From a virus (lineage: Duplodnaviria > Caudoviricetes): a DNA stretch of 64,000 nucleotides. Each line of letters opens with the position of its first letter. Position 1 is the first letter of the stretch. The translations under genes were made by a program, and so were the position numbers. The notes under the pieces are model-generated. The model did no database searches. It saw only the letters and a program-made list of their open reading frames with translations, and was not told where the DNA came from. Shown here piece by piece: positions 32,110 through 58,572 of the stretch. The stretch lies in IMG/VR virus record IMGVR_UViG_3300005683_000011, positions 1,578 through 65,577 of that record; one strand, 5' to 3'.

Positions 32110-32113
32110 GGAG

Positions 32114-32185
32114 GGTGTCTGGTGGGTTACGATCCCACGCCGTCCCCGTCACAAGGGGTTGCTCTACCGATTGAGCTACAGACAC
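32114..32185 (-). tRNA. tRNA-His(GTG)
   Basis: Acceptor GTGTCTG/CAGACAC plus C73; D arm GCTC/GAGC; loop TTGTGAC; atypical T loop ATCGTAA; no encoded CCA. Confidence 0.85.
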
Positions 32186-32187
32186 AG

Positions 32188-32260
32188 AGCCGAGGGTGGG
32201 AGTCGAACCCACAACATCCTGCCTACAAAGCAGGCGCTCTTCCAATTGAGCTACCCAGGC
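32188..32260 (-). tRNA. tRNA-Thr(TGT)
   Basis: Full cloverleaf; CCTGC-TTTGTAG-GCAGG; GTGGG-TTCGACT-CCCAC; one acceptor mismatch; no CCA. Confidence 0.9.
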
Positions 32261-32264
32261 ACAG

Positions 32265-32333
32265 TCTCAGACCGTTGAGTTGAACAACGCCATCAGAGCT
32301 TATGAGGCTCCGCTGGGCACCGGCCCGTCTGAG
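32265..32333 (-). tRNA. tRNA with CAT anticodon (Met or Ile2)
   Basis: CTCAGAC/GTCTGAG acceptor; GAGC-CTCATAA-GCTC; CGTTG-TTCAACT-CAACG; shortened D loop. Confidence 0.8.
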
Positions 32334-45411: not shown

Positions 45412-45727
45412 TGACATCCGGGTGAAGATGCCAGGCTTATCCTTCGTCACTCCCGAGGAGCAGCTGCTTCAGATGCTGAAGCTGTCTGAGTCCATTGGCG
45501 CAAACAGGGACGATCCTGACCACTACACGACGCAGATCCTGATGCAATCCATACAGCTATCGGACCTGCTGATTGAGTTACACTACCACATTACCCATGG
45601 GGGTGTGTTACCCAGGCAGTGGTCATCTCCTATGCAGCGCCCTCGTTGGCATCGTGAACCCCCGACTGACCTGCGTAAGCGTGTCGAGGAGTTTGTTGAG
45701 CAAAGAAATCGCGAAGGAAAGATTTGA
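45392..45727 (+). CDS. Hypothetical protein
   Basis: Coupled to the ATPase by a TGA overlap. Confidence 0.5.
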   Translation: MSQTNGDDIRVKMPGLSFVTPEEQLLQMLKLSESIGANRDDPDHYTTQILMQSIQLSDLLIELHYHITHGGVLPRQWSSPMQRPRWHREPPTDLRKRVEEFVEQRNREGKI

Positions 45728-46827
45728 CGAAATCGTTCTGCGTGGTAGAATTGAATAGGTTCGAGATTCGCCACAAACCAAGGAGCTACAACGAGATGCG
45801 TCCGACTGAACTGAAGCTGGCCATTGGCCAGGTGTACAAGCGACTGTATGACAAGCACAATCGCTTCCGCCCAGTGTTGATTGAAGGGCCACCAGGCGTC
45901 GGTAAGACTGACATCGTGGGTCAGGTAGCGAAGGAGATGGGGGTTCAGTACCTGGAGGTGAACCTCACCTGCCACGACGCGGGCGACATCAAGTTCCCCA
46001 TCGTGAAGGGCGATGATGTGAAGTGGAGGAACTCCATCTTTCCCGAAGGTGACTGGGAGGGCATCTGCCTGATCGATGAACTGGGTCAGGCGGAGATGCC
46101 CGTGATGAAGGCGGTGTGCCAGGTCATCCATGCACGGATGATTGGGCAGACGCCGATCGCTCCCCGGTGCATGTTCGTCCTGTGTACCAACGGGCAGAAG
46201 GATCGGGCTGGTTCCTCACGCATCATCACCCCTGTCCTCAGCCGCTGCGTGCGTTACCAGTTCGAGTGCAACCTCAACGACTGGACTGAGTGGGCCAACG
46301 TCAATGCCGTTGACCACCGCATCATCAGCTTCCTCCAGTGGAAGCCGAGCCTGCTGCACCAGTTCGATGCCGACCGTGCGGAGTTGCCGTTCCCATGCCC
46401 CCGGACCTGGCACCTAGCCAGTGACATGGCGCAGTCAGTGCAGGATTCCTTGCTGCTCAACTCCATCAAGGGATGCGTTGGTGAGGCGGCAGGCAACGAG
46501 TGCTATGGCTTCCTCGAAATCTGCGATGCTTGCGAGGTGAAGTACCCCATCCGCAAGATCCTCAGCAACCCCGACGACGTGCCTGTCCCTCGCCTCAGTG
46601 AGGGCGCAATCCTCTGGGCCATGGGCGGTGCGCTGGCTGAGCAGTGCAAGCAGAAGAAGAGGGCCATCACCCACAACTGCATGCGGTATGCCATGCGTAT
46701 GCCGTTGGAGTTCGCAAGCTACGCCGTTCGTTCTATCATCCAGTCCGGCGGATCGATGGATGCGATGACCGCGCCGGGCGCTTCCAAGTTCATCGACGCC
46801 AACAAGAACATCATCCTCGCTGTGTAG
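45724..46827 (+). CDS. MoxR/dynein-related AAA+ ATPase
   Basis: GPPGVGKT, LIDE, TN...DRAG...P..SR and PCPRTW motifs. Confidence 0.9.
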   Translation: MTKSFCVVELNRFEIRHKPRSYNEMRPTELKLAIGQVYKRLYDKHNRFRPVLIEGPPGVGKTDIVGQVAKEMGVQYLEVNLTCHDAGDIKFPIVKGDDVKWRNSIFPEGDWEGICLIDELGQAEMPVMKAVCQVIHARMIGQTPIAPRCMFVLCTNGQKDRAGSSRIITPVLSRCVRYQFECNLNDWTEWANVNAVDHRIISFLQWKPSLLHQFDADRAELPFPCPRTWHLASDMAQSVQDSLLLNSIKGCVGEAAGNECYGFLEICDACEVKYPIRKILSNPDDVPVPRLSEGAILWAMGGALAEQCKQKKRAITHNCMRYAMRMPLEFASYAVRSIIQSGGSMDAMTAPGASKFIDANKNIILAV

Positions 46828-46840
46828 CGAGGGGTTCACG

Positions 46841-47689
46841 TTGGACAACTGGAGTATCACCATGACTGGCTCGATCCGTTTGGATGGCAGCGTTCTCTTC
46901 TGGACCCTGAGCAAGGACAGCGTGCGGCAGACCATCATCGACGGCTGGACCGCTGTCGGTGGGGGATGGGGCAAGATGGCCCCGAAGGAACGGACACCTG
47001 AAGCGTGCCTGCGTGACGCCTTGACCGATCGGTTTCCCAAGGCTTTGATCCGCCCGTTGGAGAAGAAGGATGGCTTCGCTGTCCTTCAGGAGGTGCGTTA
47101 CCGCGACGACGTGCAGACGGCATGCACCCACGCTGTCGCCTTCGATGGCAGCGGGAACATCGACATCCGCCGGGGGTTCACGACGACGCTGGAGATGGAA
47201 CTACGGGAGTCCTACAACAGGCAGCGCGCCATCCTCAAGCCGAGCCAGGTGGCGACGAGCCTCGTCGGCATCCTCTCCCACCTGAACGCCGTCGTTCTGC
47301 GGCCCACAGGTGGCATCTACTGGCTCCCGGACGCGAGCCTGTCCATCTGGCAGGAACTGGCCGACGTGGTGCAGGCGGCAGGCGTAGGCGGTCGCAACGC
47401 CATCTACCGCATCACCCACACGTTCGACGCCGAGAGTGTGCGGGCTGTGCGTGACGCCGTGCTGGCCGAGGCTGACCGTGAGGCGGCGGAGATCATCAAG
47501 GATGTGGACAGCGGGGAACTGGGCGAGCGGGCGCTGAAGTCTCGGGCTGACCAGGCCGACCGGCTCAAGCTGAAGGTGCAGGAGTACGAGCGTATCCTCA
47601 ACGAGTCCTTGGGTACGGCAACGGAGATCGCCGAGCGTGCGGGGCACGTCGCTACCGCAGCGAAGATCATAGCAACCGCAGCTGCGTGA
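46841..47689 (+). CDS. Conserved phage hypothetical protein between ATPase and vWA genes
   Basis: LRPTGGIYWLP motif and helical C-terminus. Confidence 0.7.
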   Translation: MDNWSITMTGSIRLDGSVLFWTLSKDSVRQTIIDGWTAVGGGWGKMAPKERTPEACLRDALTDRFPKALIRPLEKKDGFAVLQEVRYRDDVQTACTHAVAFDGSGNIDIRRGFTTTLEMELRESYNRQRAILKPSQVATSLVGILSHLNAVVLRPTGGIYWLPDASLSIWQELADVVQAAGVGGRNAIYRITHTFDAESVRAVRDAVLAEADREAAEIIKDVDSGELGERALKSRADQADRLKLKVQEYERILNESLGTATEIAERAGHVATAAKIIATAAA

Positions 47690-47883
47690 GGTGCAACGTG
47701 ACCGTGTTCGTTCTGTGGTTCGCGAACTACGACGACAACGCATTACTTGGGGTGTTCAGCAGCATGCAGCTGGCTGAGGAGGCAAAGTCGAAGTACGCCA
47801 TCCACTTCAAGGAAATCGAGAAGGATGTCCATGAGGCGTCCATGTTCATCGACGAGTTCTGTGTCAACCAGCTACACGTTTGA
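47686..47883 (+). CDS. Small hypothetical protein
   Basis: V.VL......LLGVFSS...AE pattern. Confidence 0.55.
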   Translation: MRCNVTVFVLWFANYDDNALLGVFSSMQLAEEAKSKYAIHFKEIEKDVHEASMFIDEFCVNQLHV

Positions 47884-47889
47884 AGGACA

Positions 47890-48095
47890 TGGGGACAAGA
47901 CGGCAGCGGTGACTGGCCACGAAATCCAGGCTGCCGTCCCCCCAGATACACGATGGAGCATCACCTCTGGGACGCGGGTGATGCACGCCGGGGGCACGTT
48001 GCCCCCGGCGGTGATACATCGGGGCAGGTAACGGCACACGCCTGACCCCATGTCGGGGAGGGGGAGCATGATGCGAACCCTCCCCGTGATACACC
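47890..48095 (+). ncRNA. Candidate structured RNA: hairpin array with GATACA linkers
   Basis: Five strong stems (8-11 bp) and GATACA at 47945, 48013 and 48088. Confidence 0.6.
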
Positions 48096-48108
48096 TGGAG
48101 AACGCACG

Positions 48109-49512
48109 ATGGTCATTGACAAGCAGCTGCTTGCTGAGCAAGGGCTGGCAGCATACAGTGCAACCCGCGCAAGGATGGTCAGCTTCAAGATCCCTGGCGT
48201 TGGCAAGCCGGCCACGGTGTTCTTCACGCAGCTGACCTTGAGGCTGGAGCCGGTGGTTGATTGGGAGCAGAAGACGGCGGGCACCGATGGTGAGAAGGTG
48301 TACTTCAACCCGCAGTGGTTCCTCTCCCTGAGCCAGGCGCACCGCTTCACGATCATCGCCCATGAGGGATACCATCCTGCGATGGGGCACCATGCCAGGC
48401 AGGGTGACAGGGAGCATGAGGATTGGAACATCGCCTGCGATCTGGCGATCAACCCCGTCCTCATGGAGTCAGGGTTCGAGATGCCAAGCAATGCGATGTG
48501 TGCTGGCGTTGGGAAGTACAAGAACTTCCCCGTGGGTCTGAACGCTGAGACCTACTACGACATGATCCGGAAACCCAAACAGCAAGGGGGCGGCGGTGGT
48601 GAACAAAGGGGTAAAGGCGAAGCAAATCCTGAAGGCGCAGGAGGCAGCGGATCTGGAGAGGGCGAAGGTGAGGAACACGATGACGATGATCGAGCAGACG
48701 ACTCGCCTGATGTGGGAGGAGGATCTGAGGGGGATCAGGGGGGCGACGGAGAACCCTCACCTGATGGTGATGGAGGTGGGCCGGGCGAGTGTCCCGATCC
48801 CGGAGGTTGCGGCGGAGTTATGCCCAAGCCAAGGGCAACCCAACCCGACCTGAAAGCGGACGAAGACAAGTGGAAGGTTGCTGTCGCCCAAGCAGCTCAG
48901 ACTGCCAAGCAGATCGGCCAGCTACACGGTCAGCTTGAGCGCCATGTGGAGGAGGTACTCAAACCGAAGTACGATTGTTGGGCTATCCTCCACAACTTCG
49001 TAAGCCAGTTCGCCAAGGTCGAGCAGTCGTATGCCAGACCGAACCGTCGCTTCCTGCAACAGGGCATCATCATGCCGACGCTCAGCGGGCAGAAGCTGGG
49101 CGAGTTGTTGGTTGCGGTGGATTGTTCCGGGTCGATCAGCCAAGACGATCTCGATGTCTTCGCTGGCAACCTGGAAACCATAGCCGAGATGTACGAGTGC
49201 AAGCTGTGCATCGTGTACCACGACATCCCGGTCACGCGAGTCGAGCATTGGGAGCCGAGCGATGGACCACTGAAGCTGCGTCCTCACGGGGGCGGCGGCA
49301 CCTCCCACGTTGATGTCATGGATTGGCTTAACCGATACAGCAGGGATAGCGCGCACGATCCGCAGTGTATCGTGGCGTTTACCGATCTGTACACGCAGTT
49401 CCCGGAGAAGCAGCCGGACCTGCCCGTGCTATGGGGTGTGTACGGTACGGAGTCCCCGTACTACAAGCGTCCCAAGGCACCTTGGGGGACGGTGTGTGAG
49501 ATCAGGAACTAG
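48109..49512 (+). CDS. DUF2201-like metallopeptidase plus vWA domain protein
   Basis: TAGTDG, HEGYH, WNIACDLAIN, acidic Gly linker, VDCSGS MIDAS, GGGGT. Confidence 0.9.
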   Translation: MVIDKQLLAEQGLAAYSATRARMVSFKIPGVGKPATVFFTQLTLRLEPVVDWEQKTAGTDGEKVYFNPQWFLSLSQAHRFTIIAHEGYHPAMGHHARQGDREHEDWNIACDLAINPVLMESGFEMPSNAMCAGVGKYKNFPVGLNAETYYDMIRKPKQQGGGGGEQRGKGEANPEGAGGSGSGEGEGEEHDDDDRADDSPDVGGGSEGDQGGDGEPSPDGDGGGPGECPDPGGCGGVMPKPRATQPDLKADEDKWKVAVAQAAQTAKQIGQLHGQLERHVEEVLKPKYDCWAILHNFVSQFAKVEQSYARPNRRFLQQGIIMPTLSGQKLGELLVAVDCSGSISQDDLDVFAGNLETIAEMYECKLCIVYHDIPVTRVEHWEPSDGPLKLRPHGGGGTSHVDVMDWLNRYSRDSAHDPQCIVAFTDLYTQFPEKQPDLPVLWGVYGTESPYYKRPKAPWGTVCEIRN

Positions 49513-50219: not shown

Positions 50220-50561
50220 ATGGCTGATGAGAATGGTTCGGTCCACCTGAAGGTGAAGGTGGCGCAGGAGAATGGCGGTGAGCGTGAAGTCAACCTCATC
50301 GAAGAGACTACGTTCGCCACGCTGGTCAGGGAGGAACTGGGCAAGGCGCGCGGCTCGACGGGCTACAACTACCCGCCGATGAACAGCCTGCATGAGGGCT
50401 ACGCCGTCATCCTCGAAGAGGTCGAGGAGTTCTGGGACATCTGCAAGCTGAAGCCGGCGAAGCGTGATCGTGCCCACCTGCTCAAGGAACTGGTGCAGAT
50501 TTCGGCGATGGCGCAACGGACGGCAGAGGATCTGGGGTTGGATCTTCAGGAGCCGAAGTAA
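50220..50561 (+). CDS. MazG-like all-alpha NTP pyrophosphohydrolase
   Basis: HEGYAVILEEVEEFW...ELVQISAM. Confidence 0.7.
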   Translation: MADENGSVHLKVKVAQENGGEREVNLIEETTFATLVREELGKARGSTGYNYPPMNSLHEGYAVILEEVEEFWDICKLKPAKRDRAHLLKELVQISAMAQRTAEDLGLDLQEPK

Positions 50562-51043
50562 TGCCTTGGGTGTGGCAAGATAACCCCAAGGAAACGAACA
50601 GGTATCTGGCCAACAGGATGGACCCTGTTGGCTGGATAGTAGCCTTGGGTGATTTCCTCGATGAGGAGATCAGCCTTGTGGAGGTTGCTCTCCTGCTGAA
50701 GGAGGTGCAATACATCCACTACTATCACTTGCTCCTCTCACTTCGGGAGGAGCTAACGAGGGTCACGGAGTATCAACGTGGTTCGATCATTCATGAGCAT
50801 GGCAAACCCTGTCCCCTCTGCGGAAGGAGGTGTGCCTGCGCCAGCGGGTCGCTTCGAGTTGCCCCCGCCGACGCAAGTGCTGGGCGGTCGGGGGTACAAG
50901 GTTCTGGCGGGGCCGATCGCCTCGATCCCAACGCCGACGTTCGACCCCATCCTCAGCCAGGTGACGACGAGGTGGGAGTTGCTGACAAGGGAACTGGCTG
51001 CCATCTACCTGTGCCAGATGAAGGCGAACCGCAACCGGGTTGA
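50561..51043 (+). CDS. Hypothetical protein (3' part overlaps the next gene)
   Basis: TAATG coupling; only the first ~78 codons are non-overlapping. Confidence 0.35.
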   Translation: MPWVWQDNPKETNRYLANRMDPVGWIVALGDFLDEEISLVEVALLLKEVQYIHYYHLLLSLREELTRVTEYQRGSIIHEHGKPCPLCGRRCACASGSLRVAPADASAGRSGVQGSGGADRLDPNADVRPHPQPGDDEVGVADKGTGCHLPVPDEGEPQPG

Positions 51044-51847: not shown

Positions 51848-51878
51848 GCTGGGCGATCGCCCCGCCCAGCTTCCTGTT
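51848..51878 (+). terminator. Possible weak terminator
   Basis: GCTGGGCG/CGCCCAGC followed by TTCCTGTT. Confidence 0.4.
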
Positions 51879-57688: not shown

Positions 57689-58373
57689 CGAGAACCCCGA
57701 GCTACTCAAATGCACCCAGCAGTCGATCATCCTTGGCGTCGTCAAGGCGGCTGAGTTGGGGCTGGAACTCTCGGGTCCGCTGGGGCACGCCTACCTTGTC
57801 CCACGGTTCACGAAGATCCCTGGCACCACGCAGAAGGCTATGATGGCGATCTTCCAGGTTGGTTGGAAGGGGCTGGTCGCCCTTGCGTTCAGGCAGGGCA
57901 ATGTCGCATCACTGCCTGTCCGTTGCGTCCATGCCAACGACAGGTTCGAGATCGTGTACGGCGACGAGCAGCGTCTCATCCACGAGCCGGACCTGAACAA
58001 GGAACGTGGCGATGTGATCGGGTACTACGCTGCGGTCAAGTACGTCAACGGCGGGCGCGACTTCGAGTACATGACGAAGCAGCAGGTGATCGATCACAAG
58101 GAGAAGTACGGCGGCAAGGGGCCGGGCTGGTCCAGCGCCTTCGACAAGATGGCGATGAAGACGGTCCTTCGTCAGCTGTGCAGTCGCCTCTCCATGTGCC
58201 CCGAGGCGCAGAAGCAGGCGATGGAGGAGGAGTACGCCGAGTTGGGTGTCGCTCCCGTTCGCCAGCTTGGCGTCAAGGAGAACCCCGACGTGCAGCTGCT
58301 ACTGGATCAGGCATCCCCATCAGGAGTTATCGATGGCAACTTCGACGGTGGCCCCGACCCCTCGACTGACTGA
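57546..58373 (+). CDS. recT: RecT-family single-strand annealing protein
   Basis: L..CT..SI......AA.LGL...LG.AYLVP, G.KGL, GYYA, W...FD.MA.KTV.R. Confidence 0.9.
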   Translation: MSNEIVEQQFRAMKGFLESPTVVQQIGKIVTQGINPQRLVRQAVTLCSENPELLKCTQQSIILGVVKAAELGLELSGPLGHAYLVPRFTKIPGTTQKAMMAIFQVGWKGLVALAFRQGNVASLPVRCVHANDRFEIVYGDEQRLIHEPDLNKERGDVIGYYAAVKYVNGGRDFEYMTKQQVIDHKEKYGGKGPGWSSAFDKMAMKTVLRQLCSRLSMCPEAQKQAMEEEYAELGVAPVRQLGVKENPDVQLLLDQASPSGVIDGNFDGGPDPSTD

Positions 58374-58572
58374 CCTTCAGATGGAGTATCTCCGCCTCCT
58401 CGTCCTTGAGATTGTGGACGAGGAGGTGAAGGCTCAGGCTGAACGCGAAGACTTCTCCCGGTACAACGACTTCTACCGGGCGAAGTACATGGTTCTCTTC
58501 AACAAGATGTCCCACTGGGAGTGGGCTGAGGTTGAGAGAATCCAGAAGGAATGCTTCGACAACGTAACGTAG
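58333..58572 (+). CDS. Hypothetical protein
   Basis: Small ORF after RecT. Confidence 0.4.
   Translation: MATSTVAPTPRLTDLQMEYLRLLVLEIVDEEVKAQAEREDFSRYNDFYRAKYMVLFNKMSHWEWAEVERIQKECFDNVT

Follow-up and report, generated by a model that had tools for sequence, protein, structure and literature searches.

The 225-nt spacer between the stop codon of a DUF7336-family gene and the start codon of a DUF2201 gene in the early operon of this phage (47884-48108, plus strand) is non-coding, and its hairpins and the motif common to its linkers are non-random. It holds five hairpins and three linkers, and the word GATACA is found in every one of the linkers. We tentatively read the spacer as a cis-acting intercistronic mRNA element, in which the hairpins would serve as blocks that stabilise the message and keep Rho away, while the GAUACA linkers would give entry to a nuclease or to ribosomes. 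This is the best explanation that we can offer, and our confidence in it falls somewhat short of even. We infer that RNA is the active form, that it is cleaved, and that gene expression is affected. We would class the spacer with the known intercistronic stem-loop clusters, as a lineage-specific variant whose unusual trait is that a single exposed word occurs in all linkers.

Genome setting and architecture of the spacer

The DNA analysed here (the window) is a stretch of 64,000 nucleotides that corresponds to bases 1578-65577 of a 65,577-nt IMG/VR record rated as complete by CheckV. The phage has a GC content of about 59%. Virion genes, among them those for the major head protein and the large terminase, occupy the minus strand up to approximately 35.4 kb together with a trio of tRNA genes (32113-32333), which are all the tRNAs that ARAGORN reported for the window. 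From approximately 36.5 kb onwards the plus strand carries the early genes, which encode, among others, a Dam-class methyltransferase, an HNH protein, an AAA_5/MoxR-type ATPase, DUF6744, DUF7336 and DUF2201_N+DUF2201 and, further along the early arm, an HTH regulator, a small serine recombinase, RecE/RecT-like proteins and a replication initiator. A planctomycete is the probable host, as suggested by notes accompanying the original prediction and by one named Gemmataceae homologue with 39% identity; a protein search of 400 sampled Planctomycetota genomes revealed no related prophage.

The rightward early operon is otherwise tightly packed, with adjacent genes on the same strand that abut or overlap. 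The module in question starts with the AAA_5/MoxR-type ATPase gene (45724-46827, plus strand; Pfam AAA_5, E = 1.3e-6; phrog_1297 ATPase, E = 6e-61), followed by the DUF6744 gene (46841-47689, plus strand; Pfam PF20529, E = 7e-7), whose stop overlaps the start of the DUF7336-family gene (47686-47883, plus strand). The latter encodes 65 aa (61 aa if the GTG at 47698 is used) and is located immediately 5' of the spacer. Its Pfam match (PF24024, E = 6e-4) is below the cutoff, and its codon-position GC of 0.52/0.26/0.80 marks it as clearly coding. The DUF7336 family assignment is precomputed for protein P0121, the nearest ESM Atlas clusters are viral DUF7336, and a homologue encoded on a 65.2-kb contig (P0123) is 56% identical and has the same C-terminus. 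Downstream of the spacer, the DUF2201 gene (48109-49512, plus strand) encodes a protein of 467 aa with a metallopeptidase-like DUF2201_N and a VWA-like DUF2201 domain (Pfam E = 1.6e-38 and 9.7e-21). The annotated start at 48109 is supported by homologues of 443-477 aa, whose alignments begin at the same N-terminus.

Direct reading of the sequence bore out the five stems and the three GATACA words of the original prediction (plus strand, at 47945, 48013 and 48088, hence at spacings of 68 and 75 nt). All features described in the following are on the plus strand. Hairpin 1 (47890-47943; -27.4 kcal/mol when folded alone, z = -2.85) is the long one: its 9-bp core stem (47899-47907/47930-47938) is lengthened by an inner 4-bp helix and an outer 5-bp G4/C4 helix. 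The 19 nt of linker 1 (47939-47957) comprise GATACA (47945-47950), the SD-like TGGAG and the 8-mer CACGATGG, which is found again at the real DUF2201 start codon (48105-48112). Hairpin 2 (47958-47984; -14.3 kcal/mol, z = -2.9) has a stem of 8-9 bp, of which 8 bp are formed by 47958-47965/47977-47984, and a loop of 9-11 nt. Only one base further on, hairpin 3 begins (47986-48010; -25.9 kcal/mol, z = -3.9), with an 11-bp stem (47986-47996/48000-48010) closed by a 3-nt loop. Linker 2 is 10 nt long (48011-48020; GATACA at 48013-48018). The bulged hairpin 4 (48017-48052; -15.4 kcal/mol, z = -2.2) pairs 48021-48028 with 48041-48049, leaving one A bulged, and is in competition with a long-range stem (47886-47897/48043-48054). 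Hairpin 5 (48054-48086; -23.7 kcal/mol, z = -3.9) lies four bases from hairpin 4 and combines a 9-bp stem (48054-48062/48078-48086) with a 3-bp apical helix. Linker 3 (48087-48108, 22 nt; GATACA at 48088-48093) is the true initiation region of DUF2201, with the SD sequence GGAG (48097-48100) placed 8 nt 5' of the ATG.

Linkers 1 and 3 have GATACAC, TGGAG and the 8-mer in common. In all three linkers the hexamer stands 1-6 nt past the preceding stem, and the claim that GATACA directly follows stems held in that the hexamers lie in exposed linkers. They are mostly unpaired in the predicted ensemble: the mean unpaired probability is 0.81 for the hexamer of linker 1, while in linker 2 the first three bases are exposed and the last three are able to pair at the base of hairpin 4. 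The proposed periodicity of about 70 nt is correct with respect to the spacings; the regular repeat is loose, as unit A consists of one long hairpin and units B and C of two hairpins each, with sequences that are not significantly alike (p = 0.1-0.3). Four of the five loops measure 9-22 nt. The stems are Watson-Crick paired except for one pair and equally stable on both strands, and the tails 3' of the stems read CCCCCAGA, ACGCC, GTGATA, ATGT and TGATAC.

The spacer is not a translated ORF, in agreement with the original prediction. Its codon-position GC is 0.75/0.64/0.59, compared to approximately 0.5-0.65/0.26-0.47/0.70-0.82 in the flanking genes, and no ORF overlapping it has a Pfam match. 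A 76-aa antisense ORF within the gap matched no database protein, not even a gene call from the same contig, and a 31-codon ORF starting at 47953 was rejected, being devoid of both an SD sequence and a coding signal. DUF7336 and DUF2201 share a reading frame, interrupted only by TGA 47881 and TGA 48046, and hairpin 5 begins 5 nt past the second TGA. Such a same-frame DUF7336-TGA-TGA-DUF2201 layout is of the kind that read-through or recoding would require. We take it as chance, because approximately 1.8 stops are expected anyway; an N-terminal extension of DUF2201 by read-through was further rejected on account of the non-coding composition and of the start shared by the homologues.

Departure from chance and comparison with relatives

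The predicted fold of the spacer reaches -111.7 kcal/mol, compared to -89.8 +/- 5.1 kcal/mol for dinucleotide shuffles (z = -4.3; minus strand, z = -4.1). One of 5000 shuffles contained as many as four perfect stems of 8 bp or more, the number found within 190 nt of the spacer (p ~2e-4), and no second cluster of four stems is present either in 1.17 Mb of other loci or in the 64 kb of the window, where 63 such hairpins were counted. It is common for some hexamer to occur three times in a sequence of 225 nt (45% of shuffles, one third of real tiles), but rare (0.5%) for a hexamer with at least four A/T to do so, and the probability that three linkers of 19, 10 and 22 nt share any hexamer is p = 1.8e-4. 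A GC-matched regression over the whole phage lowered the fold z of the spacer to a mere -2.1 to -2.4, and better-folding spots exist in the phage; this only moderately unusual GC-corrected folding (z ~-2.3) counts against the mRNA element proposed here. Pairwise alignments of the units were no better than those of shuffles (p = 0.12-0.75), and MAFFT did not place the hairpins of the units in register. Since homology between the three units is not demonstrable, their differing stems cannot be counted as compensatory change, and the selection on structure that the original prediction had deduced from them is not shown. Tandem duplication as the sole explanation was rejected given that the units are not significantly alike.

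A search against Rfam 15 agreed with the expectation that no known family would match: even at the laxest filters no family was obtained, the best scores of 15-20 bits (E = 1-8) facing cutoffs of 45-89 and all being single-hairpin artefacts. A relaxed ARAGORN run on the spacer for tRNA-like folds returned no genes. G-quadruplex formation was rejected for too widely spaced G-runs, and an integron attC site for the lack of GTTRRRY in the spacer and of cassette ORFs between the hairpins. A CRISPR or type III antitoxin repeat array, which requires near-identical units, was dismissed on the basis of the unit alignments. BLAST with the spacer found no second copy in the window and only chance-level matches of 18-40 nt in the 400 sampled Planctomycetota genomes, and REP/BIME or another host-derived palindromic family was rejected, as neither the phage nor the 400 genomes searched contained further copies. 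Elsewhere in the window, the segment 37994-38076 (plus strand) is a hammerhead candidate with a weak match to Rfam Hammerhead_II (19.1 bits against a gathering threshold of 37, E = 0.21 in a 400-nt search); no hammerhead at the gathering threshold is present across the whole window.

To place the spacer in a wider context, the gaps upstream of DUF2201 were compared in 116 loci drawn from collections of viral, metagenomic and genomic sequences. The gap was at most 10 nt in 53 loci and 11-50 nt in 33, adding up to 86 of the 116 with no more than 50 nt, and none of 13 longer gaps combined high GC, a strong fold and repeated GATACA. A conserved structured leader of DUF2201 genes was therefore rejected for these loci, and the homologous spacers that the original prediction had suggested comparing upstream of DUF2201 genes proved not to be a family trait, with no locus similar to the spacer described here. 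In the nearest relative with readable DNA (G003, locus L007), whose DUF2201 is approximately 42-44% identical, the ATPase, DUF6744 and DUF2201 genes follow one another in this order, their stop and start codons overlapping, and both the DUF7336 gene and the spacer are absent. DUF7336 and the spacer therefore represent an insertion/deletion difference, and the structured gap is lineage-specific. The two phages have in common only the module genes, at 27-42% identity, and two others. The ATPase - DUF6744 - DUF2201 trio (45724-49512, corresponding to 1543-4676 of L007) can be regarded as a module conserved across otherwise unrelated phages, with DUF7336 as an optional insert.

Closer DUF2201 homologues (P0002-P0014) are known as proteins; they are 42-60% identical, and several are encoded on contigs of 65-67 kb. 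The contigs measure 65.4 kb for P0007, 66.1 kb for P0009 and likewise for P0010, 67.0 kb for P0011 and 45.5 kb for P0002/P0124. Three true relatives as judged by terminase and capsid (G001, G002 and G004; 58-80% identity) are fragments without the early arm. Searches for relatives carrying the region yielded only distant loci in IMG/VR (queried with DUF2201, the A1 alignment, P0009, P0010, the AAA ATPase and the DUF7336 alignment), in metagenome contigs and GTDB genomes (A1 alignment), in GenBank phages (DNA and protein) and in the 400 Planctomycetota genomes (protein). A scan of IMG/VR for three spaced GATACAY words produced nothing similar among the matches listed (at least 118), which comprised AT-rich tandem repeats and a single GC-rich match, a CRISPR array. 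The latter, a CRISPR-like array at the end of a viral contig (IMGVR_UViG_3300020577_009880, locus L260, 5230-5486), has at least four repeats of 37 nt with spacers of approximately 37 nt; it has a hairpin with GATACA in the loop, and it is unrelated to the spacer described here. Two sites in G001 with a stem followed by GATACA recur in G002 with identical sites and flanks. Their stems are weak (6-7 bp) and lie in GC-rich sequence, one of them apparently being antisense to coding sequence, and we judged them to be due to chance.

The absence of the spacer from the nearest relative is what would be expected if it were a by-product without a function of its own, a reading that we regard as unlikely. 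The spacer would then be a recombination scar from the placement of DUF7336 between DUF6744 and DUF2201, possibly involving a local duplication of the DUF2201 leader, with palindromes that were sharpened by template switching or kept only since a long untranslated gap must fold against Rho-dependent polarity. The short gaps (at most 50 nt in 74% of the 116 loci) speak for such an origin, and the pieces of the initiation region common to linkers 1 and 3 are consistent with duplication; perfect, purely Watson-Crick stems are expected of young or mutationally generated palindromes, and no copies exist elsewhere in the phage window or the 400 Planctomycetota genomes. However, beyond the hexamer the units show no significant likeness, which makes a recent duplication unlikely, and an old duplication would need selection to hold GATACA in all three linkers (p ~2e-4). 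Four perfect stems in 190 nt are, moreover, extreme.

In a quite improbable reading, DUF7336 and the spacer form one mobile module. The small DUF7336 protein or a host factor would bind three sites, each made up of a stem and GAUACA, and thereby control how the DUF2201 message is translated or processed; alternatively, two-hairpin decoy RNAs of approximately 70 nt would be released from the array. If true, this would be an undescribed device of post-transcriptional control in phages, whose sites are defined by architecture and a 6-nt tail and not by stem sequence.

A candidate intercistronic mRNA element and its rivals

Neither strand of the spacer (47884-48108) contains terminator-like sites or T-runs, and a clear terminator elsewhere in the phage (38553-38577) does have a T-run. 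No sigma-70-like promoter was found in the gap, and sigma-54 and ECF promoters were rejected by eye. As the hairpins are not canonical terminators and a promoter is likewise missing from the gap, DUF2201 should be co-transcribed with the upstream genes. In the mRNA element that we propose, the ATPase, DUF6744, DUF7336, the untranslated spacer and DUF2201 would be part of one polycistronic early mRNA, and transcription would pass through the spacer, a proposal based on hairpins without a U-tract and a gap without a promoter. Ribosomes would be released at the DUF7336 stop, and DUF2201 would be translated from its own exposed SD sequence in linker 3. The GC-rich hairpins would hold 225 untranslated bases in a folded state, so that Rho would be left without a loading site, and after cleavage they would shield the 3' ends of the upstream fragments from exonucleases. 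The GAUACA linkers, almost the sole A/U-containing single-stranded stretches, would be the point of entry for a single-strand endoribonuclease and/or serve the standby binding of 30S subunits. By these means the level and lifetime of the DUF2201 mRNA may be set apart from those of the upstream genes.

Candidates for the endoribonuclease would be enzymes of the RNase E/G/Y type or a MazF-type ACA cutter. Enterobacterial RNase E prefers U at position +2, which GAUACA does not fit, a point against the mRNA element. UACA is the core of several MazF-family recognition sites. To our knowledge, nothing has been reported on the RNases of planctomycetes. GATACA sites 1 and 2 of the spacer (47945 and 48013) are each followed by two adjacent stem-loops. 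In MicL, two adjacent stem-loops direct precise cleavage by RNase E (bioRxiv 10.1101/341578). By analogy, the arrangement shared with MicL, in which a single-stranded site precedes two stable stem-loops, may be counted in favour of the mRNA element. The sequence at the cut can vary in MicL and its product ends in a terminator (bioRxiv 10.1101/341578), whereas the spacer has a conserved single-stranded word and no terminator, and its cleavage is putative.

The same layout bears on a distinctly unlikely alternative, in which the transcript would be cut at the GAUACA linkers to release two or three stable hairpin RNAs of approximately 70 nt that act in trans, either as regulators or as decoys or sponges for a nuclease or an RNA-binding protein of the host or the phage. 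The units, 68 and 75 nt in length, have the same exposed hexamer at their boundaries and contain two very stable adjacent hairpins each, which fits this picture, and the succession of linker and stem-loops is like that of RNase E sites from which 3'-derived sRNAs are released (10.1101/341578). Yet the spacer lacks both a terminator and a U-tail, a complement to the DUF2201 initiation region was not found, and Rfam gave no match, phage C4-type RNAs included. With two or three units only and unrelated stems, a common protein-recognition surface would be lacking except for the tail.

Because the stems are strand-symmetric and Watson-Crick paired, the sequence does not decide between RNA and DNA, and it weighs against the mRNA element that nothing marks the plus-strand RNA as the active form, the stems folding equally well on both strands. 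Several indirect points favour RNA: the position in a same-strand operon without promoter or terminator, the long loops, the word in single-stranded linkers, and the likeness of linkers 1 and 3. Loops of 9-22 nt would suit the folding of RNA or single-stranded DNA but are poorly suited to cruciforms extruded from a duplex. Linker 1 has the look of an incomplete copy of the true initiation region, which would tie the motif to an mRNA leader. The GATACA-type word is not a mark of intergenic regions elsewhere in the phage, which likewise favours RNA. Directly 3' of the RecT-like gene (stop at 58373), on the same operon strand, lies a single perfect 11-bp hairpin without a T-run (58395-58426, plus strand); we counted it in favour of the mRNA element that this phage uses intercistronic hairpins without a T-run elsewhere. 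Against it stands the dispensability of the spacer for the module, as in G003 the genes overlap and no spacer separates them.

The strand symmetry of the stem energies and the perfect Watson-Crick pairing would suit an element that acts at the DNA level, which we consider quite improbable. Either words of the GTGATRCA type (47978, 48012 and 48086, plus 47945) would bind a phage or host protein, or the hairpins would be priming or nicking signals in single-stranded DNA, in which a hairpin is followed by a 3' word as for HUH enzymes and ssi signals. GTGATRCAY was counted six times in the window (expected, 2.15), and the spacer accounts for three of these; hairpin 3 forms a 25-bp near-palindrome that could extrude, and 48008-48016 is the reverse complement of what we take to be a lambda-operator-like half-site. 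However, the other copies of the word are within coding sequence, and the copies are direct repeats whose spacings of 34, 68 and 74-75 bp lack helical phasing. The genes for the replication initiator and the serine recombinase lie at distances of 12 kb and 7 kb, respectively. Among the subset of ORFs scanned, none was recognised as encoding an HUH enzyme, a relaxase or a primase, and the long loops disfavour cruciforms.

The original prediction had also named put RNAs, and a processive antiterminator of this kind, known from HK022, in which each two-hairpin unit would bind the elongating RNA polymerase in cis and allow it to pass downstream terminators, is highly improbable. Units B and C resemble put RNA in presenting two adjacent stem-loops within 68-75 nt of a phage early transcript (PMC9378689), a likeness that concerns size and hairpin count only, and a terminator-like hairpin with a T-rich tail is found downstream (51848-51870). 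The put RNA, by contrast, has long stems with many bulges and a stem-I triplex, is located just downstream of early promoters, and acts via contacts to RNA polymerase that are thought to be specific to the gamma-proteobacterial enzyme (PMC9378689). The spacer differs in stem architecture, operon position and host range: its stems are short and perfect and lie in mid-operon with no promoter nearby, for which reason put was rejected by architecture, and the probable host is a planctomycete. There is no put model in Rfam, which gave no match on the HK022 region that should hold the put sites; the HK022 record leaves these sites unannotated.

Comparison with known intercistronic elements

The mRNA element proposed here has its closest counterparts among hairpins that reside in the untranslated gaps of operons. 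REP/BIME elements of E. coli, e.g. between malE and malF, are GC-rich hairpins without U-tracts that cluster in such gaps and are expected to block 3' exonucleases, resulting in different levels for the upstream and downstream genes. The spacer is like them in these structural respects. REPs, however, all belong to a single conserved family that numbers hundreds of copies and is characterised by a GTAG-type word, whereas the five stems of the spacer are all different, no further copy was found in the phage or the 400 Planctomycetota genomes, and the shared word lies 3' of the stems. The intercistronic RNase III sites of phage T7 are likewise hairpins between cistrons of a phage polycistronic mRNA, which are processed and then stabilise the upstream message. 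They are single hairpins of approximately 20 bp or more with an internal loop, are mutually similar and are distributed over many junctions; in the spacer, five short and dissimilar hairpins are gathered at one junction, and only hairpin 1 comes near the length needed. With type III antitoxin (ToxI) and CRISPR arrays the spacer shares a periodic hairpin plus a short conserved single-stranded tail at which a nuclease would cut. These arrays exactly repeat one sequence and adjoin their own nuclease gene, in contrast to the differing stems of the spacer and its neighbouring VWA/peptidase gene.

If the reading as an mRNA element is right, the spacer would illustrate, in compact and natural form, how a phage can adjust the level of a single gene inside a packed operon. 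Control would reside in RNA structure together with a short exposed word, in hosts (probably Planctomycetota) in which RNA processing has hardly been studied, and the element would provide a concrete handle on DUF7336 and on the phage MoxR-VWA (DUF2201) module. Its value is that of a well-defined candidate, a single lineage-specific instance and not a new RNA class.

The plus strand's strongest fold by GC-corrected MFE lies elsewhere, at 50500-50800 (z = -4.4; -127 kcal/mol, z = -5.3 against shuffles). This segment includes a 14-bp hairpin at approximately 50604-50637 and straddles the junction of two ORFs without family assignment (50220-50561 and 50561-51043).
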